A stretch of 13,221 nt of DNA, taken from NCBI GenBank assembly GCA_005222975.1, contig NJBI01000078.1, positions 1 to 13,221 on the forward strand, written 5' to 3'. The stretch comes from Promethearchaeota archaeon Loki_b31 (GTDB taxonomy: Archaea > Asgardarchaeota > Lokiarchaeia > Sigyniarchaeales > SOKP01). Positions 32 to 7,765 of the stretch are shown piece after piece. Positions within the stretch are counted from its first letter, which is position 1; the number at the start of each line of letters is the position of its first letter. Both the position numbers and the translations under genes were made by a program. The notes beneath the pieces are model-generated. The model was not told the origin of the DNA. It ran no database searches and saw only the letters and a list, made by a program, of their open reading frames with translations.

Positions 32-1135
32 TTAATATTTTGAAGTGGTTTTTGATTTGATTTTATATTTTGGAATCTCTTTTATTTTTCTTAACTCTTT
101 TTCAAAATCTCGCTTTTCTCTAAGAAATCTCTCTTTATCACTTTTTAATTTTTCTCTTTCTCTTCTAATTGCCTGCTTTTCATTCTGCATCATCGATTTT
201 TCTTTTTCCAATTGTTTAGACTCATTTTTTAATTTTTTAAGCTTATTCTCTAAATTACGAATTTTATGTTCTAAAGAATAATAAGTATCTTCTGCTTTAG
301 GAACTTTTCTATCTAATTCCTTTAATCTTGCTTCTTGCCCTTTTTTCTTTCTTTCTAATTCTCTTATATTACGATCTACTTTCTCTTTATACTTGTTCAA
401 TCCTTCTTTTTTTTTTTCAACTTCACGAGATTGAAGATTTAACTCTTTTTTTTTATATCGAACTTTTTCTTTTTCATCTTTTAATTTTCTTTTCTCATCC
501 TCGATTCGATTTTTTTCATCTATTTTTTCTCTTCTCAAACTATTGATTTCTTTGGTTAGATTATCTCTTTCTCTCGTTAAATTCTTAATTTCATTTCTCA
601 AATCCATTAATGCGTTTTCCAACTTTTCATTAGTTCTTTCTAACGCATTTTCTCTCCGTTCCATACCGGGTATTTTAGTTTTAATTTCCTTAATTCTATC
701 TTTTGCTCTTTCTTTTTCTTTTTCTAAATATTTTTTCTCATTCTTTATCTCATCTTTTAATCCATGTAGTTTCTCTTGATATCGTTCTAAGTTAGCATTT
801 TTTTGATCTAATTCCCTTTCTCTTAAAGCTATATTATCTCTACTTTGCTTTATTTCATTTCTCATAGCATCTAATTCATTTTTTAATTTTTCACGTTTAT
901 TTTGTAGGTCTCTCACTTGAAGTTCTTTTTCTTTTCTTTTCTTTTCTAAATCTTCAATATTTTCGTGGTATCCTTCAATTTTTTTAATAACCTGTTCCCA
1001 TTCATTTTTCTCTTTGTTCAATTTAGCTGTTTCTTCCTTAATTTTTTTGAGTAATTTCGCATCTGGAATAACATCTAATTGCTCTTCAGGTGTTTTTTCT
1101 CGAATTTGGTATTTAGGAATGGGTTTATCATTCAT
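32..1135 (-). CDS. Long coiled-coil protein (367 aa), function unknown
   Basis: ATG-started ORF, almost entirely E/K/R/L/N heptad-like helix. Prolines only near the termini and at P156/P279. No Walker A motif or hinge, so not an SMC. Confidence 0.85.
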   Translation of the reverse strand: MNDKPIPKYQIREKTPEEQLDVIPDAKLLKKIKEETAKLNKEKNEWEQVIKKIEGYHENIEDLEKKRKEKELQVRDLQNKREKLKNELDAMRNEIKQSRDNIALRERELDQKNANLERYQEKLHGLKDEIKNEKKYLEKEKERAKDRIKEIKTKIPGMERRENALERTNEKLENALMDLRNEIKNLTRERDNLTKEINSLRREKIDEKNRIEDEKRKLKDEKEKVRYKKKELNLQSREVEKKKEGLNKYKEKVDRNIRELERKKKGQEARLKELDRKVPKAEDTYYSLEHKIRNLENKLKKLKNESKQLEKEKSMMQNEKQAIRREREKLKSDKERFLREKRDFEKELRKIKEIPKYKIKSKTTSKY

Positions 1136-1317
1136 GGTATTTGTAAAAACTCATATAAATTTTTAAGTATAATATAGTATTTTTCACTCTAAAGTGTTTG
1201 CAATTTACTTTTATTACTTTAAAGCCAATTTTTGTTGTCGATTTATATATTATCATTTCCATTATTTCTTAAAAAGAAACATAAAATTTATAATTCTAAA
1301 CTAATGGTGTGTATTTA

Positions 1318-1707
1318 ATGGATTTTGAGGAAGATTTTAACGAGGAATTTGACGAGGAATTTGACGAAGACCTAGATGAAGAATTAGATGAGCCTTCTAC
1401 AAAGTCCCCCACGGAAGATTTTACAGTTAAAACTCCAGATCAAAAAATCTCACATGAAGGAAAAAAGATTTCAGTGTATTTTCTATCAACCATAGGACCT
1501 GGTGAGAAAAAACAAAAATTACTGGTCTATACTGGAAATAAAGTAGGAGATATTAAAGAAACTGTAGCAAATTTGTTTGCTTTAGATCCTGCTGACTTTC
1601 ATTTATCTTCGGGGGGAGTCACTATGGATGAAATTTCGATGTTAAGTGATTATAATTTGTCTGATGGAGATGATATATTACTAATTCCAGCTAGCGTTGC
1701 TGGTTGA
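1318..1707 (+). CDS. Ubiquitin-like protein (Ubl-1) with acidic N-terminal tail, C-terminus ...LIPASVAG-stop
   Basis: The last ~82 aa follow the ubiquitin pattern (VGDIKETV~IENVKAKI; FHLSSGGVTMDE~QRLIFAGKQLED; LSDYNL~LSDYNI). ATG at 1318 is preferred over the GTG at 1309 because GGTG (1306-1309) lies 8 nt upstream and the paralogue starts similarly (MDF vs MSF). Confidence 0.85.
   Translation: MDFEEDFNEEFDEEFDEDLDEELDEPSTKSPTEDFTVKTPDQKISHEGKKISVYFLSTIGPGEKKQKLLVYTGNKVGDIKETVANLFALDPADFHLSSGGVTMDEISMLSDYNLSDGDDILLIPASVAG
1324..1392 (+). repeat. In-frame 12-bp tandem repeat (~6 degenerate copies) encoding (F/L)-D/E/N-E-E/D units
   Basis: TTTGAGGAAGAT TTTAACGAGGAA TTTGACGAGGAA TTTGACGAAGAC CTAGATGAAGAA TTAGATGAG. 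Exact core (ACGAGGAATTTG)x2 plus ACGA at 1340-1367. Confidence 0.9.
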
Positions 1708-1759: not shown

Positions 1760-2554
1760 CTATTTTTTTTTTTTTCTTGATGGAATTAGCGCAATTTCGT
1801 TATCATCGTCTATAGCATAATCTTCTATTAGAAGAGTTTCTTTCAATAAAATCCCCCCAGATGATAATAGAAAATCTTCTAGATTATAATCAAATAATAT
1901 TCCAACTTTTTCTTTAATGATACTTACTAATTCAGACGGATCAATAATGAGAATCTTAGTTTTCTCACCTGATTCGACTAATGACCTTACATAAACACGT
2001 ATTTTCTCATCCATCCCAATAGTATGCAATGGTGGGTTGTATATCACCTGTTCCTCAGTTAGGCTCTTGGTTTCTAACATATCTTCAATTAACTGTTTTC
2101 TCTCACTATCATCAAAATACAACATCTCTCTGATAAAAAAGATTTTATCCATTTTTGATAATCCTAAAAGATCAATTTTAGCTATTTGCTCTTTACTAAA
2201 AATAGTAAAAATATAATCATCCATCGATTCTATTTCTTCAAATGATTCTATTGCATTCGCATAATTATCTATTAAAGGCATTGCATCAAAGTAATCCTCG
2301 AGTAGAGCACTAGTTTTTTTCTTAACTGATTTTTGTTTAGGAAAAGGTTTTTTACCTTTCATCTTTACAATATGGGTACTACTAGATTGAACAACGGTGT
2401 ATATCGTGCCTGTGGATAGCACAGCAACACTACCAATTGTTAGAAAGATATATACTGGAACATTTTCTACTTGTAAAAATATAAGAATCAAATAGGTAAA
2501 TACAATCCCTACATAAAGAGTTATGAGACTTAATATTCTATAATTCTTTCTCAT
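1760..2554 (-). CDS. Membrane protein with two N-terminal TM helices and a C-terminal Ubl domain lacking the terminal Gly
   Basis: Two hydrophobic segments (ILSLITLYVGIVFTYLILIFL; VYIFLTIGSVAVLSTGTIYTVV). The last 81 aa align with Ubl-1/Ubl-2 (GEKTK, IKE, FLLSSGG, DY, LIP) and end SRKKKK. ATG at 2554 preferred; the ORF track starts at TTG 2599. Confidence 0.8.
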   Translation of the reverse strand: MRKNYRILSLITLYVGIVFTYLILIFLQVENVPVYIFLTIGSVAVLSTGTIYTVVQSSSTHIVKMKGKKPFPKQKSVKKKTSALLEDYFDAMPLIDNYANAIESFEEIESMDDYIFTIFSKEQIAKIDLLGLSKMDKIFFIREMLYFDDSERKQLIEDMLETKSLTEEQVIYNPPLHTIGMDEKIRVYVRSLVESGEKTKILIIDPSELVSIIKEKVGILFDYNLEDFLLSSGGILLKETLLIEDYAIDDDNEIALIPSRKKKK

Positions 2555-2638
2555 GATTTTTATGATAAATTCTATTCTAATTTCTAATATATAATTCAAA
2601 ATATAAATCCCATTGGAATAAGTTTGAAATTTTGATGC

Positions 2639-3310
2639 TCACCCACCTAAAATTGATGCTCTTATCTTATAGTATTTCTCTGTATTGATTTTAAAAAAAA
2701 CCTTTTTATTTTCTTTTTCGATTGTTATTAAATCCAGATTTTTTAATATTTCAAGATACTTTTTTATAGTATTGTAATTCTTTTTTAATCCAGTTGCGAT
2801 TTCAGTACTCTTTAATGTTTTATTTTCTTTAATCATAAAATCAATTATTTCTTGAACGATATCTCTTTTTAAATAAAAAAATAACATATCATATTCTGGA
2901 TTTGAATCATATTCAAAGATTATTTTTTGATTATCAATTTTTTTTGATCTAGTAAATCTAAATTTTTCTAAACAGGATAAATGCCATAGTGCTTGATTGC
3001 TTCCAATGTTAATGGCTCTCATTATTTCATTAATATTTGATGGATTCTTCTTTATAAAATTATAAATTTCATTTCTTATGGGATGTTCAATAATATTGTT
3101 TTTCATTAATTTTGTTCCAGGAATTAAAATTCTTTTTTTAATTAGATTTTTAATTATAAGTTCAATACTATTTTTATTTAGATAAGGGTTAGATTTTACT
3201 CTATTATTGATAAATACAACAATATCTTCTATTGAAAAGAAAGGTTTCTTTTTTAAATATTCCCTTATTAAATCACAAACAATAGATTGAAGGTTATCCG
3301 GAGAGCTCAT
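2639..3310 (-). CDS. Winged helix-turn-helix transcriptional regulator with tandem ArsR-like wHTH domains
   Basis: RNEIYNFIKKNP..INEIMRAI..G..QALWHLSCLEK and a second HTH, STEIATGLKKNYNTIKKYLEILKNLDLI. This matches the archaeal double-HTH regulator pattern. Confidence 0.8.
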   Translation of the reverse strand: MSSPDNLQSIVCDLIREYLKKKPFFSIEDIVVFINNRVKSNPYLNKNSIELIIKNLIKKRILIPGTKLMKNNIIEHPIRNEIYNFIKKNPSNINEIMRAINIGSNQALWHLSCLEKFRFTRSKKIDNQKIIFEYDSNPEYDMLFFYLKRDIVQEIIDFMIKENKTLKSTEIATGLKKNYNTIKKYLEILKNLDLITIEKENKKVFFKINTEKYYKIRASILGG

Positions 3311-3503
3311 AAGCTAAAATTTTTATTATGTTAAATGGTCTGAATTTATTAATCAAATCTTCTTTCTAAACAGTATTCTCACCAATATATATTAATAAAT
3401 CGTCATTCAATTTATAAATATATGTTCTTAGGCTCTACTTAATATATTATTTCGTTCACTTTTTAAAATTAATAAAACTTCAAAATCATTCCAATGCGTT
3501 TTA

Positions 3504-3530
3504 TAATAAATAGATTTTATCTATTTATTA
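3504..3530. promoter_or_regulatory. Perfect 12-bp inverted repeat (TAATAAATAGAT-ttt-ATCTATTTATTA), candidate operator
   Basis: Lies in the divergent intergenic region between the wHTH gene and the Ubl-2/E1 operon, and overlaps a TATA-like TTTATAA at 3500-3506. The palindrome is observed; the function is inferred. Confidence 0.5.
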
Positions 3531-3575: not shown

Positions 3576-3908
3576 ATGAGTTTTGACAACGATTTTGATG
3601 AGGAATTAGAACCAGTTAAATCTAAAACCCCATCAAGTAAAACACCCTCAACAGGCAGAAAGTTGACTTTATATTTCATGTCAACTATTGGTCCTGGTGA
3701 AAAGAAGGAAAAATTAACTGTGAATGACGGTAATAATGTAAGTGACATTAAACAAACATTAGGAAATTTATATGGACTTGATCCTGAAGAATTTCACCTC
3801 TCATCCGGAGGAGTTACCATGGATGAGGGTAATCAATTAAAAGATTATAATGTTAGTGATGGCGACGACATTCTCTTGATCCCAGCGAGTACTGCTGGAT
3901 ACTTTTAA
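3576..3908 (+). CDS. Ubiquitin-like protein precursor (Ubl-2), C-terminus ...LIPASTAG-YF
   Basis: 58/82 residues identical to the Ubl-1 domain by manual alignment. Immediately upstream of E1-E2-JAMM-RING. Confidence 0.9.
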   Translation: MSFDNDFDEELEPVKSKTPSSKTPSTGRKLTLYFMSTIGPGEKKEKLTVNDGNNVSDIKQTLGNLYGLDPEEFHLSSGGVTMDEGNQLKDYNVSDGDDILLIPASTAGYF

Positions 3909-3934
3909 ATATTTCTTTTCATAAAGTTTAATAT

Positions 3935-3968
3935 AAGGGCATTAAGCCCTTCAATTTTTTTATTTTTT
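3935..3968 (+). terminator. Putative hairpin plus T-tract terminator/attenuator between Ubl-2 and E1
   Basis: AAGGGC-attaa-GCCCTT (3935-3951), followed by CAA and T7-A-T6. The GC stem stands out in AT-rich DNA. Confidence 0.45.
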
Positions 3969-3983
3969 CAATTAATATTAATA

Positions 3984-5216
3984 GTGATAATATTGGATAA
4001 GGAATCAGATTTTTTTGCTAAAGGAATGACAGCGGAAGAGAGAAATTTATATGATCGCCAATTTCGTTTGGAAGGATGGTCTCAGAATTTGGTAAAAGAC
4101 TCAAGAGTGTTAATTGTAGGCATTGGTGGGTTAGGTTGCGAAATTGCTAAAAACCTAGCCATGTTAGGTGTAGGCCATTTAGATCTTGTTGATTTAGACA
4201 TTATTGAGCATTCCAATTTGAATCGCCAAATTCTTTTTGTTGATGCAAAGTTAGGAGAACCAAAAGCTATTGTAGCGGCTAATAAGCTAATCAAGATTAA
4301 CCCTAATATTACTGTAAAAGGGTATCATACATCCTTAGAAAGGCTAGATCCTGCTTTATATCGTGCGGCAGATGTTGTTATTGGGGGTCTTGATTCAATG
4401 AATGCCCGTTTGAACCTAAATGCGCAATGTATACGATTTAGAAAACCACTAGTGGATGGAGGTGTAAATGGTTATCATGGACATATGTATTCAATCTTTC
4501 CGTATCGGAATGCTTGTTACGAATGTAATCCATTACCAGTAGCTGAAAATGATGAAATGGCAGCCTGTACAGTGGTAGGTATCCCCCGAAAACGGATTCA
4601 TTGTGTTTTTAAAGGAGATATGGCCTTTAAAGAAAAGTTTGATAGAGATCCGTACCCAAAAAATATAAAGGATATTGAATTTATCCAAAAAGGTGCAAAT
4701 AAATTAGTGAATAAGCATAATTTCCTACCTGAATATACTTCTGATGATATCGTTAAAATTATTGATCGTCATGATCCTGGGATCATTACAATTAATGCTG
4801 TTATTTCTGCTTTAGAATCACATGAAGTTGTGAAAATCTTGCATTGGAAAAGAGGTCATAAGAGTTTAGGACGACCCATTTCAAGTTATGTTATATTTAA
4901 TGGAATGACAATGAAACTGTATCATATTGAAAAGAAGAGAAATCCGGAATGTTCTCAATGTGGTAAAAACGTAAGGCGTGTTGCTATAAAAATGAAAGCT
5001 CAATCACCCTGTATGAACATAATTAGAACATTGCAAAAAAATGGATTTGAATTGGAACCTGAATTTGAACCAGTTGTTACCTTACAGGATTTCAATGACA
5101 TCATGGTTTTAGATTTAGAGCAAAATGTAATCGAAAATGGATTAAGAAACTACGAATTTCTGACCGTTGTGGGGTTAAAGGGTGGAGAAATTTATGTTAC
5201 TTTAAAATTAAAATAA
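3984..5216 (+). CDS. E1 ubiquitin-like activating enzyme (ThiF/MoeB adenylation domain, catalytic-Cys region, probable C-terminal ubiquitin-fold domain)
   Basis: LYDRQ, GIGGLG, DLDIIEHSNLNRQ, GLDS..AR, two CxxC pairs (CYEC, CSQC). CTVVGIPRKRIHC resembles the UBA3 catalytic motif CTIASMPRLPEHC. Start is uncertain (GTG 3984, TTG 3993 or ATG 4026). Confidence 0.92.
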   Translation: MIILDKESDFFAKGMTAEERNLYDRQFRLEGWSQNLVKDSRVLIVGIGGLGCEIAKNLAMLGVGHLDLVDLDIIEHSNLNRQILFVDAKLGEPKAIVAANKLIKINPNITVKGYHTSLERLDPALYRAADVVIGGLDSMNARLNLNAQCIRFRKPLVDGGVNGYHGHMYSIFPYRNACYECNPLPVAENDEMAACTVVGIPRKRIHCVFKGDMAFKEKFDRDPYPKNIKDIEFIQKGANKLVNKHNFLPEYTSDDIVKIIDRHDPGIITINAVISALESHEVVKILHWKRGHKSLGRPISSYVIFNGMTMKLYHIEKKRNPECSQCGKNVRRVAIKMKAQSPCMNIIRTLQKNGFELEPEFEPVVTLQDFNDIMVLDLEQNVIENGLRNYEFLTVVGLKGGEIYVTLKLK

Positions 5217-5293
5217 AAATTAAATCAAAAATGATTTTTGAGAAAAATCTATTAAAAAAAAAAGTATAAAAGAAAATAAAAAGGGTTGAGAAA

Positions 5294-5821
5294 ATGAGTA
5301 TAAGAACCAGTCGTGTTTCCCGAGATTTTGCGGGATTAAAAAAATTGCTTAAAGAAGGTACTATTATCCAATTAAAACCATTTAATCCGAAAAAAAAGAG
5401 TATTGATCATTTAGCAATCACAATTAAAGGTCCTAAAGGTACAGTTTATGCAGGGGGATTGTTTAAGTTGGAAATGAGATTCCCGGCTCAGTATCCTAAG
5501 CGACCTCCTTTCGTAAGATTGCATACTCCAATTTGGCATCCAAATTTTTGGCCAAAACCAAGTGAATACAAAGGACAGAGAAATATTTGTTTAGCTTTAG
5601 TAGATCCTTCTTTAACGGGTAAAAAAGGGGGATGGAGTCCTTCAAAAACAGCAGTTACTGTTGTTCAAGCAATAATTGCAATGTTAAACACCCGTGGTAA
5701 ATATGTTAATCCCACTGATGTTTTTAATAAGAAAGCTGCAATAGAAATGATGAAAGATCAGAAATTTTTTGAGAAAAAGGTCAAAAATTTAGTAAAGAAA
5801 TACGCAAAAGATAAATGGTGA
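5294..5821 (+). CDS. E2 ubiquitin-conjugating (UBC-fold) enzyme
   Basis: GP.GT.Y.GG.F.L...FP..YP..PP.V....IWHPN, catalytic ICL (C99), WSP. Confidence 0.95.
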   Translation: MSIRTSRVSRDFAGLKKLLKEGTIIQLKPFNPKKKSIDHLAITIKGPKGTVYAGGLFKLEMRFPAQYPKRPPFVRLHTPIWHPNFWPKPSEYKGQRNICLALVDPSLTGKKGGWSPSKTAVTVVQAIIAMLNTRGKYVNPTDVFNKKAAIEMMKDQKFFEKKVKNLVKKYAKDKW

Positions 5822-5828
5822 ATTTATA

Positions 5829-6620
5829 ATGAATATTGATGATAATGCACTCAGAGAGGCAATAAAACAGAAAATTAAGGAAAAAATTAAAAAGGAATTA
5901 CTTGAAGAAGTATATACCGAATTACAACTAGAAGAATTGCAGGAAGAATTAACCACTGAACTTATTAAAGCAAGGCCTTTAGAACATTCAAAAGAAATTA
6001 AAGCCAAACTTGAGCCAATTCCTATGGAACCAATAAAAACTATAGCTAAAAATGATAAAGTTGAAGTATCTTTGACTATAAAATCTATCCTTAAGATCGC
6101 TAGCCATTCATTAAAATATGCACATTCTAAAATGCGAAGAGAGAATTGGGTTGAAGTAATAGGGTTGCTTGCAGGAAAATACGATAATAGAAAAGGAATT
6201 CTTCATGTTGAAGATGCGTATCCGATGGGGCATGGTACAGCAGTATATGCTGAAATTAAAGATTATAAAAATTATGTTAGAGCCTACAAAGAGATTAAAA
6301 AAGATAATCTGGTTATTTGTGGATGGTATCATTCTCATCCTTCTTATGGATGTTTTATGTCTCGAGAAGACTTAGGAACTCAAGCAAGATATCAAAAATT
6401 ATGGGATAAAGCTATTGCGCTTGTTATTGATCCATATCAGATTAACGGGAAATCTTTAGGTTTTGAAATTTATCGTGCTAATTTTAAAACAAAAAAATGG
6501 TTTTCAATTCCATTTGATATTAAGGGGTATTTAGATGTAAGAATGTTACCAGAAATTTTAGAATTTATGAATCCTATTATTGAAGGAAAACCAGTTTATT
6601 TAGAATATGATGAAGAATAA
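5829..6620 (+). CDS. JAMM/MPN+ metalloprotease (Rpn11/CSN5-like) with N-terminal coiled-coil extension
   Basis: EVIGLLAG and GWYHSHPSYGCFMSREDLGTQ give the full E...HxH-x7-S-x2-D motif; also ALVIDP. GGTG lies 8 nt upstream. Confidence 0.93.
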   Translation: MNIDDNALREAIKQKIKEKIKKELLEEVYTELQLEELQEELTTELIKARPLEHSKEIKAKLEPIPMEPIKTIAKNDKVEVSLTIKSILKIASHSLKYAHSKMRRENWVEVIGLLAGKYDNRKGILHVEDAYPMGHGTAVYAEIKDYKNYVRAYKEIKKDNLVICGWYHSHPSYGCFMSREDLGTQARYQKLWDKAIALVIDPYQINGKSLGFEIYRANFKTKKWFSIPFDIKGYLDVRMLPEILEFMNPIIEGKPVYLEYDEE

Positions 6621-6649
6621 TGAATAGTTTTTAAGGTGAAAATTAAACT

Positions 6650-7765
6650 ATGGTAAAAAAAAAAGTGTTAAGGATAATAGCTATTATTTTTCCAATAATT
6701 GGCTTAATTCATGGTTTAATCTCATATTCTTCAACTATTTTTTTTACATGGTTATTAATCGGATTATGGATAATATTTACAATGAAGATTTTTGAAAATA
6801 TCAAGCGCCACCGTGAGTTTAATTCACCACACAATACTGCATTTTTTGTGATTCTCCCATTATTTATCGGGATTTTTTACTCCATATGGGGTTCTTTTAC
6901 TGGTCTATTGGGAGAGAGTCTTATCGGTGGCGTATATTTTAGTCTTTGGAGTCTAATTTTTGCTTTTCCATTTATAATGTATGGTTTATATTCTTTATAT
7001 CGTTGTTTTAAGAAATATAATGTAATCTATTTTGGAAAAAAATCAGTAAAAGCAAGAATGTTGGGATATATTCTATCATTCTCAGTTCTTATTCTTATTA
7101 TTGCCTATTGGATAACTTTTTATAATTTTACTCTATTAGACTTAAATCTCCTATTACTTTTCATAGCTATAGTTTTAATATTAATTGTTTTTGGATTTAC
7201 TAGTACTGGTTCATCAATACCAACATTAACTCGGGATTACATTGCTGAACGTACTAGAAGGATCAATAATTTGACCACACCTTCAACCCAGAGACAAAGA
7301 GTACACACAACACGTACAACTAATACATCTCCATCAACTAGAACAACTACACGTACAACAAGATCTAGAACCCAATCGTCAAGAACAACTCCTACATCAC
7401 ATAGACAAACGGCAAGGACTAGAACAACAAATACTACACGTACTACTCGTGTTAAACCAACTTCAAAAGTTCGTGATCTAAATAAATATAAACCAAGAGC
7501 ATCATATCTTACAGTAGATGATTTTAAATGTATCTTTTGTTTTAATTTACCAAAACTTCCTGGAGACAGAGGTAGAGGAATAGTTGTATGTCCAAATTGC
7601 AGATATCCCGCACATGCTGATGAATTTAAAGATTGGATGCGAACTTCAAACCTCTGCTCACGTTGTAGTGCTGTTATACCATCAGGCTTTAGGCGTAATC
7701 CTAGAATTGTATCTGTAAAAAATTATTTAATTATCTATAGACATTTTTTGAAGAAGAAAAGATAG
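6650..7765 (+). CDS. Multi-pass membrane protein (~6 TM) with Thr/Arg-rich linker and C-terminal RING-like zinc finger; putative E3 ligase
   Basis: Six hydrophobic segments in aa ~6-184. C294xxC297...C314xxC317-x4-H322-x2-E325-x3-W329...C336xxC339. Last gene of the Ubl-E1-E2-JAMM run, with GGTGA upstream. Confidence 0.75.
   Translation: MVKKKVLRIIAIIFPIIGLIHGLISYSSTIFFTWLLIGLWIIFTMKIFENIKRHREFNSPHNTAFFVILPLFIGIFYSIWGSFTGLLGESLIGGVYFSLWSLIFAFPFIMYGLYSLYRCFKKYNVIYFGKKSVKARMLGYILSFSVLILIIAYWITFYNFTLLDLNLLLLFIAIVLILIVFGFTSTGSSIPTLTRDYIAERTRRINNLTTPSTQRQRVHTTRTTNTSPSTRTTTRTTRSRTQSSRTTPTSHRQTARTRTTNTTRTTRVKPTSKVRDLNKYKPRASYLTVDDFKCIFCFNLPKLPGDRGRGIVVCPNCRYPAHADEFKDWMRTSNLCSRCSAVIPSGFRRNPRIVSVKNYLIIYRHFLKKKR
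7274..7465 (+). repeat. Low-complexity Thr/Arg/Ser coding tract with degenerate repeats
   Basis: ACACGTAC at 7310, 7349 and 7436; ACTAGAACAAC at 7337 and 7418. Encodes repeated TRTT. Confidence 0.7.

Follow-up and report, generated by a model that had tools for sequence, protein, structure and literature searches.

The stretch of DNA considered here, hereafter the window, comprises 13,221 nucleotides (nt) of contig NJBI01000078.1 of Promethearchaeota archaeon Loki_b31 (~30% GC) and carries a cluster of ubiquitin-like (Ubl) genes, one of which, termed TM-Ubl, encodes a Ubl that is anchored in the membrane by transmembrane (TM) helices. Between its membrane hairpin and its Ubl, TM-Ubl contains a helical 'mid' domain, for which the conserved partner is a winged helix-turn-helix (wHTH) regulator encoded directly upstream. 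The strongest functional evidence concerns this mid domain and points to the neighbouring regulator, therefore TM-Ubl may be read as the membrane half of a regulator-tethering module, which probably couples regulation of the cluster to the membrane. The gene and its parts are as follows (pLDDT, per-residue confidence of the structure model; AF2, AlphaFold2; HMM, hidden Markov model):

1760-2554, minus strand: TM-Ubl gene, 264 amino acids, stop codon at 1760-1762 (open reading frame (ORF) list and translation).
2390-2536, minus strand: two-helix membrane hairpin, residues 7-27 and 34-55, with a six-residue outer loop (hydropathy and charge).
2312-2389, minus strand: basic, disordered juxtamembrane linker, residues 56-81, net charge +9 (pLDDT below 50 for residues 49-89).
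2057-2317, minus strand: mid domain, residues 80-166, helical and acidic, predicted docking site for the wHTH regulator (HMM and model).
1781-2008, minus strand: Ubl beta-grasp domain, residues ~183-258 (BLASTP, AF2 model, Foldseek and tree).
1763-1780, minus strand: basic tail SRKKKK instead of AS(V/T)AG, containing a 13-nt A run at 1763-1775.

The ATG at 2554 was taken as the start because homologues begin there: a word-index search retrieved 430 proteins, of which the best 120 are full-length and 57-100% identical to TM-Ubl, and all of these 120 begin with MRKNYR or MKKKYR. A longer version starting from a TTG at 2599 (ORF 1760-2599(-)) was dismissed, as the homologues do not use this start. 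In the hairpin, the 19-residue hydropathy reaches 2.3 and the model places helices at residues 3-26 and 32-58, while the charges of the N-terminus (+3), of the six-residue loop (-1) and of the 27 residues past the second helix (+9) lead, by the positive-inside rule, to the prediction that both ends of the protein should be cytoplasmic (N-in, C-in). The acidic stretch that follows the linker (residues 82-166, net -12) is predicted to be helical, and a short linker then connects it to a C-terminal domain of ~76 residues. In Pfam and NCBIfam, TM-Ubl yielded only sub-threshold matches to ubiquitin and Rad23, plus noise from the TM hairpin (DUF2614, PRK02935).

In BLASTP searches, ungapped alignments were obtained between the C-terminal domain and both free Ubls of the window, Ubl-1 (37% identity, E 1e-16) and Ubl-2 (35% identity, E 2e-15); Ubl-1 and Ubl-2 are 61% identical to each other, and these three proteins are the only members of the Ubl family in the window's own genome. 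Against the Pfam ubiquitin model (PF00240), TM-Ubl scores 21 bits (E 2.8e-4), which is under the gathering cut-off of 25.4 bits, and Ubl-2 passes with 28.9 bits. The AF2 model of the domain has the order beta-beta-alpha-beta-beta-(3-10)-beta, with a pLDDT of 83-89 over residues 201-260, and Foldseek returned more than 500 matches with it, which are ubiquitin-type chains only (ubiquitin, ISG15 and Caldiarchaeum ubiquitin; target TM-score 0.8-0.94, root-mean-square deviation (rmsd) 1.3-2 A), including the Caldiarchaeum ubiquitin in complex with its Rpn11 (6fno_D; E 4.4e-7, target TM-score 0.81, rmsd 1.7 A). The motifs GEK.K, F.LSSGG, DY and LIP, together with K214, are kept across all Ubl groups compared. 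The surface positions L192, E194, K200, I201, L229, A255 and R260 are conserved in the membrane-anchored copies and differ from all free Ubls, where the counterparts of L192, E194, L229, A255 and R260 are T, G, H, L and S, respectively. In a maximum-likelihood tree of 64 Ubl domains (unrooted and built from 76 columns only), all 19 membrane-anchored copies form one clade on a long branch (support 100/98), whose neighbour (98/95) is a conjugatable fusion of a Zn-ribbon, a coiled coil and a Ubl that ends in IPSRVAG.

Aligned in the register of ubiquitin, whose tail is L-R-L-R-G-G, the free Ubls end in P-A-S-(V/T)-A-G and TM-Ubl in P-S-R-K-K-K-K, and with its terminal IPSRKKKK TM-Ubl lacks the C-terminal Gly (here Ala-Gly) of a conjugatable Ubl. 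Among the 120 homologues, the tails past the invariant Pro read SRKK in 63 cases and SRNK in 16, the rest being other short basic variants, and none of the 120 ends in Ala-Gly or Gly-Gly; the KKKK of the window is two lysines longer than the tails of its closest relatives. A slip of the A13 run by one base (-1 or +1) would produce SRKKKNRSEKRK or a 43-residue extension, neither of which restores a Gly end, and a sequencing error in the homopolymer was ruled out on this ground and by the tails of the homologues. Of 200 phylum genomes sampled, those with full-length TM-Ubl include 14 of the 16 from one genus and all 10 from another genus of the same family; copies also occur in two additional genera of this family, with distant representatives (35-45% identity) retaining the architecture. 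An alignment of 20 homologues has a mean column identity of 74%, and the TM hairpin, the middle region and the Ubl domain are all conserved in it. Because the architecture and the basic tail of the IPSRK type are kept in at least 120 homologues, TM-Ubl is neither a sporadic fusion nor the product of a homopolymer error. That the gene is a Ubl fusion in decay, or an artefact of assembly, could appeal to the 13-nt A run at its 3' end and to the ubiquitin score below the Pfam cut-off, but this explanation is refuted by the conservation (at least 120 intact homologues of conserved length and tail, and no Gly end from one-base frame shifts), and its probability is close to nil.

Much of what the first-pass annotation had proposed is borne out by these data. 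It had described a membrane-anchored, non-conjugatable Ubl paralogue, which agrees with the hairpin, the 35-37% identity to the free Ubls, the SRKKKK tail and the absence of Gly ends in 120 homologues, and a layout of two TM helices, basic linker, acidic helical region and C-terminal Ubl, on which hydropathy, charge and the AF2 model concur. The shared positions it had named (GEK.K, F.LSSGG, DY, LIP) proved to be conserved in all Ubl groups, and both one-base slips were checked and leave the 13-nt run without a Gly end, as it had stated. It had also named three findings that would overturn it, none of which was made: the C-terminal domain is a beta-grasp by its Foldseek matches to ubiquitin, the gene is no sporadic unconserved fusion, since homologues and synteny are conserved, and the Ubl domain is predicted to be cytoplasmic rather than extracellular because of the positive-inside rule and because the mid domain that precedes it is elsewhere fused or adjacent to DNA-binding wHTH proteins. 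Its view of the acidic helical region as a mere spacer did not hold, as this region is instead a distinct mobile domain with a wHTH regulator as its conserved partner.

In a library search, some proteins matched only residues ~75-165 of TM-Ubl, i.e., the mid domain alone. The mid domain (~85 amino acids) occurs as stand-alone proteins of 72-120 residues and as the C-terminal cytoplasmic tail of single-pass membrane proteins of 300-860 residues, the ectodomains of which are LamG, TSP3, NosD/beta-helix or beta-propeller domains. An alignment of 26 mid domains shows that the domain always directly follows a TM helix and a Lys/Arg-rich stretch, and it is sometimes duplicated. The mid-domain HMM matches the window at 2063-2317 (E 2.6e-30); judged by this distribution, the 'acidic helical region' is a distinct mobile cytoplasmic domain. 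Within the sample of 200 phylum genomes, 32 of the 40 that belong to the window's family contain it, compared with 1 of the 160 others (a marginal match), and in the window's own genome it occurs in the TM-Ubl gene only. No Pfam family covers its stand-alone or receptor copies, a sequence-profile search of the Protein Data Bank (PDB) gave only E-values above 0.2, and its predicted fold had no match below E 3 in Foldseek against the PDB and a best Z of 4.1 in VIA-align against 48,161 chains, which is within the noise for helical models. Just ahead of the mid domain there is often an eight-ligand Zn finger (C-x2-H ... C-x2-C-x4-C-x2-C ... C-x2-C; e.g., P0156 residues 36-100, and L036 5815-6654(-) and 4762-5622(-), these being our own labels), which gave only weak matches to RING, B-box and double-zinc-ribbon models (E 0.007-0.1).

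The genes next to TM-Ubl in the window are the following:

2639-3310, minus strand: double-wHTH regulator gene, 223 amino acids, 84 nt upstream of TM-Ubl and in the same direction.
1309-1707, plus strand: Ubl-1, ending ASVAG exactly at the Gly, convergent with TM-Ubl.
3576-3908, plus strand: Ubl-2, ending ASTAG-YF, first gene of the operon 3576-7765.

The wHTH protein matches the Pfam families HrcA_DNA-bdg and HTH_5 above their cut-offs and SdpR/ArsR-type models below theirs, and it has no match among the PDB sequences. A wHTH orthologue adjoins TM-Ubl in every orthologous locus examined, and at two loci of sister genera that do not have TM-Ubl, the wHTH gene is also missing at the corresponding place. 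The association extends to mid domains outside the TM-Ubl orthologues: when the results of a wHTH-protein search and a mid-domain profile search of family genomes were compared by place and counted by hand, ~74 of ~99 such mid-domain places in 60 family genomes had a wHTH match on the same strand, usually 60-100 nt downstream of the mid-domain gene and otherwise in the gene immediately before it. For the five richest genomes, the figure is 43 of 58 places, the wHTH match being fused, located 32-271 nt downstream or encoded by the upstream gene. The pairing persists across paralogues that share only 28-45% identity, and some genera have up to ~18 copies of this surface-protein module per genome. 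At least four single ORFs join TM helix, mid domain and wHTH in one reading frame, four of them in one genome (e.g., 1107 and 1547 residues). Examples of such fusions are L032 747-4070(-) and L033 278-4921(-), and separate receptor and wHTH genes are found in L034 (825-3704(+) with 3796-4419(+)) and L028 (3147-4991(-) with 5148-5828(-)). There are also short wHTH partners of 135-155 amino acids, which consist of the N-terminal ~140 residues only, without the ArsR-like winged helix (L026 6376-6783(-), L027 2483-2950(+), L059, L060, L063 and L072); the N-terminal part of the wHTH protein that is kept in these partners is, according to the model described next, predicted to be the part that binds the mid domain.

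A structure prediction was made for the complex of the window's wHTH protein and the mid domain of TM-Ubl, from alignments of 18 and 26 rows, respectively. It reached a score of 0.66 (runs of 0.80, 0.66 and 0.46), compared with 0.14 for the best of three controls, and thereby passed a mark attained by 58 of 80 solved complexes and 2 of 110 mismatched pairs, counts which are only a rough guide because analysis-specific alignments were used here. The runs share at least 30% of their contacts and the partner pLDDT is at least 58. In the contacts with the lowest predicted error, I115, F116 and T117 of TM-Ubl (mid-domain residues 36-38) face the wHTH strands FFSI and ILIPG, at wHTH residues 24-27 and 62-65; two more wHTH residues, W109 and F117, also belong to the predicted interface, and the ArsR/SdpR-like winged helix of this protein (residues 148-209) lies outside it. 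F116 is invariant among the TM-Ubl homologues, and the interface positions of the wHTH protein are conserved in the wHTH family. Since the mid domain is without a solved relative, it is unlikely that the pass reproduces a structure already solved. As a prediction, the model supports binding of the wHTH regulator by the mid domain.

This pairing bears on each of the roles that can be proposed for the Ubl domain. The first-pass annotation had suggested a membrane adaptor or decoy, loosely analogous to HERP/TMUB, for partners such as JAMM, E1 or an AAA ATPase. Spelled out, this would be a scaffold or decoy like HERP/Usa1/TMUB, which would recruit JAMM, E1, the proteasome or a Cdc48-type ATPase to the membrane. 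A cytoplasm-facing Ubl on a TM hairpin would suit such a role, as would the retention of the family-wide core and loop motifs and a basic tail that is about as long as the conjugatable tail, so that it could fill a tail-binding groove without reacting. HERP/Usa1 and TMUB1 scaffold ligases of endoplasmic reticulum (ER)-associated degradation. Like TM-Ubl, these ER membrane proteins combine a TM hairpin with a cytosolic, non-conjugated Ubl and lie beside a multi-TM RING ligase, but their Ubl is N-terminal, whereas that of TM-Ubl is C-terminal, and TM-Ubl is paired with a wHTH protein. TM-Ubl had no Pfam or NCBIfam match that would relate it to HERP, Usa1 or TMUB, and no relationship was seen beyond the fold. 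The Ubl face differs from that of the free Ubls at positions that are themselves conserved among the membrane-anchored copies, which disfavours a simple mimic, and the scaffold or decoy also leaves the mid/wHTH evidence unexplained; on balance we consider this role rather unlikely. HERP and TMUB are no more than a loose analogy, and the MUB/UBL3 proteins and membrane-tethered transcription factors discussed below are closer.

A further proposal makes use of the docking itself, in that TM-Ubl could be a substrate adaptor or built-in acceptor, which would offer to TM-RING and E2, for conjugation of Ubl, either the wHTH protein docked on it or the Lys-rich Ubl and tail of TM-Ubl itself, much as a non-removable ubiquitin serves as a degron in the ubiquitin-fusion-degradation pathway. 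The conserved K198, K200 and K214 together with the basic tail, the TM-RING gene in the same cluster and the modelled wHTH docking are in line with it. However, this proposal is speculative throughout, the tail lysines are not constant in number (RKEKN and RKSIN are the ends of some homologues), and both the acceptor role and its likeness to a degron seem improbable.

TM-Ubl lies among the genes of a Ubl conjugation system. The operon 3576-7765(+) encodes Ubl-2, E1, E2, JAMM and TM-RING; Ubl-2 carries two residues (YF) beyond its Gly, and both free Ubls have acidic N-terminal extensions. The order TM-RING, JAMM, E2, E1, Ubl-2, wHTH, TM-Ubl, Ubl-1, coiled-coil protein, with Ubl-2 and wHTH divergent, is kept where TM-Ubl is only 58-66% identical, the same order occurs in eleven more genomes, and the neighbours include cofG/cofH/MptA-type genes, in agreement with a Lokiarchaeial origin. 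The protein encoded at 6650-7765(+) has multiple TM segments, an Arg/Thr/Ser-rich linker and, at its C-terminus, a RING-like finger; it matches no Pfam or NCBIfam family above threshold, and its gene is conserved as the last of the operon in every locus seen. Clusters of the same kind have been described as archaeal Ub-E1-E2-RING-Rpn11 operons in Caldiarchaeum (PMC5654768, PMC6043591) and in Asgard archaea (PMC9192718); the modifiers in these reports end in Gly-Gly, and neither a membrane-anchored Ubl nor a wHTH partner is described there. In this literature (also bioRxiv 10.1101/2023.07.25.550441) and in that on transmembrane regulators (PMC10269533), no membrane-anchored Ubl or mid/wHTH module of Asgard archaea was found. 

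Other genes accompany Ubl clusters as well. The coiled-coil protein of the window (32-1135(-)) has counterparts in L022 (13554-14468(+)) and L023 (1800-3212(-)), with PPKY.IK.KTP near the N-terminus and C-terminal KSKTP repeats, and adjoins the Ubl cluster even in genera without TM-Ubl. Proteins with a Zn-ribbon and coiled-coil N-terminal part followed by a conjugatable Ubl with an STAG or RVAG end (L022 5619-6401(-); L023 7703-8470(+) and 8765-9658(+); P0151, P0164, P0166, P0168 and P0170) adjoin Ubl clusters that lack TM-Ubl, and one of them is the nearest tree neighbour of the TM-Ubl clade. Additional forms of the Ubl family are head-to-tail poly-Ubl precursors of 2-3 units, each ending in STAG (P0135, P0154), a fusion of a Roadblock/LC7-like domain to Ubl (P0144) and another N-terminal fusion (P0155).

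The presence of TM-Ubl, E2 and a multi-TM RING protein in one cluster could also point to a tether of the MUB/UBL3 type, in which the Ubl would bind the backside of E2 and concentrate or throttle it at the membrane beside the TM-RING E3, with the wHTH pairing being secondary. In eukaryotes, MUBs tether E2s to the plasma membrane through backside binding (PMC4996978), and UBL3 is required for ubiquitination by the membrane RING ligase MARCH (PMC9001657). Like TM-Ubl, these precedents place a ubiquitin fold without a conjugatable Gly-Gly end at the cytoplasmic face of a membrane, and they act with E2s and membrane RING ligases, genes for which share the cluster of TM-Ubl. The retained ubiquitin fold and lost Gly end suit this role, and many mid-domain proteins have a binuclear Zn finger in place of the Ubl, whose weak RING/B-box-like matches suggest a possibly equivalent recruitment of E2, but these matches are far under threshold (E 0.01-0.05). 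MUBs are anchored by C-terminal prenylation and are without TM helices, mid domain and paired transcription regulator, whereas TM-Ubl has an N-terminal TM hairpin, no CAAX prenylation signal (its tail contains no Cys) and no detectable homology to MUBs. Moreover, its positions that match the L8/I44/H68 face of ubiquitin differ from those of the free Ubls, and the mid domain with its strict wHTH pairing is unexplained by an E2 tether. We regard this role as doubtful, though less so than that of a HERP-like scaffold.

TM-Ubl and the divergent Ubl-2 operon share a DNA element. In 13 orthologous wHTH/Ubl-2 intergenic regions, a common block CTTCAAAATCATTCCAATGGGTTTTATA was found, which has a TATA-like hexamer at its end, and a 20-mer derived from it matches the window twice, compared with 0.01 matches expected:

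2602-2621, minus strand: promoter- or operator-like element TTATTCCAATGGGATTTATA, 48 nt before the TM-Ubl ATG, present in 7 of 14 orthologous loci.
3486-3505, plus strand: second copy, TCATTCCAATGCGTTTTATA, 71 nt ahead of the ATG of Ubl-2, with counterparts in 13 of 14 orthologous loci.

These sites are the only exact matches to the degenerate 20-mer in the 3.5-Mb genome. The element before TM-Ubl is often a perfect ATTCC-AAT-GGAAT dyad and recurs in a more distant genus. At two loci without the wHTH/TM-Ubl pair, no copy of the element was found ahead of the Ubl operon. Because it precedes both genes, TM-Ubl is predicted to have its own promoter of the same type as that of the Ubl-2 operon, and we infer that the wHTH protein binds the 20-nt element. 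With two mismatches allowed, a whole-genome search with the 20-mer gave nine more sites (one for the reversed control), the downstream genes of which are unrelated or absent, and a wider regulon is not claimed. A perfect 12-3-12 palindrome at 3504-3530 overlaps the TATA-like hexamer before Ubl-2; it is genome-specific and not conserved across the 13 orthologous intergenic regions, in which the conserved block is the 20-mer just upstream.

As the mid domain is mobile and has a wHTH protein as its conserved partner, the likely role of TM-Ubl shifts towards regulation. TM-Ubl would be a small membrane protein that exposes its two ends to the cytoplasm and whose mid domain would dock the N-terminal winged-helix part of the upstream double-wHTH regulator and thereby hold this regulator at the membrane. 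The pair would be a specialised member of lineage-specific, two-part and sometimes fused membrane signalling modules, each composed of a mid-domain membrane protein and its cognate wHTH protein, in which the input is ordinarily a large extracellular domain, whereas in TM-Ubl the input or handle would be a cytoplasmic Ubl without the Ala-Gly end. The regulator probably acts on the shared element before the TM-Ubl gene and before the divergent Ubl-2/E1/E2/JAMM/TM-RING operon, and the dead-end Ubl would couple its availability to the state of the Ubl machinery, for instance by being bound, modified or extracted, which would likely result in feedback between the machinery and transcription of the cluster. 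For this package as a whole, a tethering module with the dead-end Ubl as its cytoplasmic input, the chances appear evenly balanced, and docking of the wHTH protein by the mid domain, taken by itself and as modelled, is the likelier part. The data themselves establish the architecture and its conservation, the Ubl fold, the lost Gly end, the pairing and fusion of mid and wHTH genes and the shared DNA element, whereas the model alone supports mid/wHTH binding, and the direction of control and the binding partner of the Ubl domain are what we infer beyond this; by analogy, binding of the E2 backside as in MUB/UBL3, recruitment of JAMM, E1 or an unfoldase, and service as a built-in acceptor would all be compatible with the data. 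One specific version, in which the dead-end Ubl is a flux sensor that E2/TM-RING or JAMM treats as an acceptor or product mimic, so that its modification or extraction would free or destroy the docked wHTH protein, must be viewed as a long shot, on a par with the scaffold.

Several systems resemble the tethering module in that a membrane protein and a DNA-binding-type protein are adjacent or fused, namely anti-sigma factors with extracytoplasmic function (ECF) sigma factors, SdpI-SdpR and transmembrane transcription regulators (PMC10269533). The mid domain is unrelated to described anti-sigma or SdpI domains, and the wHTH protein has similarity of the ArsR/SdpR type; the SdpR model reaches 39.5 bits with it (cut-off 100) and SdpI has no match in TM-Ubl, so that the likeness to SdpI/SdpR is an analogy only. 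ToxR-type regulators have a domain order opposite to the ectodomain-TM-mid-wHTH order of this module, and TM-Ubl has a cytoplasmic Ubl in place of an extracellular sensor.

Some points weigh against reading TM-Ubl as a tether of its regulator. The genomes behind the adjacency counts are related to one another, so that the counted events are not independent, and the binding of the mid domain to the wHTH protein was predicted in a single structure-prediction job with analysis-specific alignments. The window's genome has seven matches to the wHTH family and one mid domain, hence wHTH proteins also work without it. The 20-nt element could be merely a shared strong promoter, the link from the Ubl domain to regulation is purely conjectural, and the wHTH pairing may be compatible with a second role of the Ubl, such as E2 binding.

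The ubiquitin clusters of Asgard archaea are of interest as precursors of the eukaryotic system, and descriptions so far comprise only the soluble modifier, E1, E2, RING and Rpn11. TM-Ubl adds a membrane-anchored, non-conjugatable ubiquitin fold in a prokaryote, the nearest functional analogues of which, MUB/UBL3 and HERP, were regarded as eukaryotic, and links it to a previously undescribed, lineage-specific signalling module of mid domain and double-wHTH protein. New are the mobility of the mid domain, its occurrence in TM-mid-wHTH fusions, the complex model that passed its mark and the promoter element common to TM-Ubl and the Ubl-2 operon. The module offers a concrete, testable hypothesis, that an archaeal ubiquitin operon is regulated from the membrane, and recombinant proteins would allow tests both of the 20-nt element and of the predicted interface, in which F116 lies against the wing strands of the first winged helix. 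If the dead-end Ubl did act as a flux sensor, an Asgard archaeon would already use ubiquitin to control a transcription factor tethered to the membrane, following the logic of yeast Spt23/Mga2, and the receptors that combine a mid domain with a RING-like Zn finger, of which there are dozens, would represent a wider family of Ubl-controlled transmembrane signalling.

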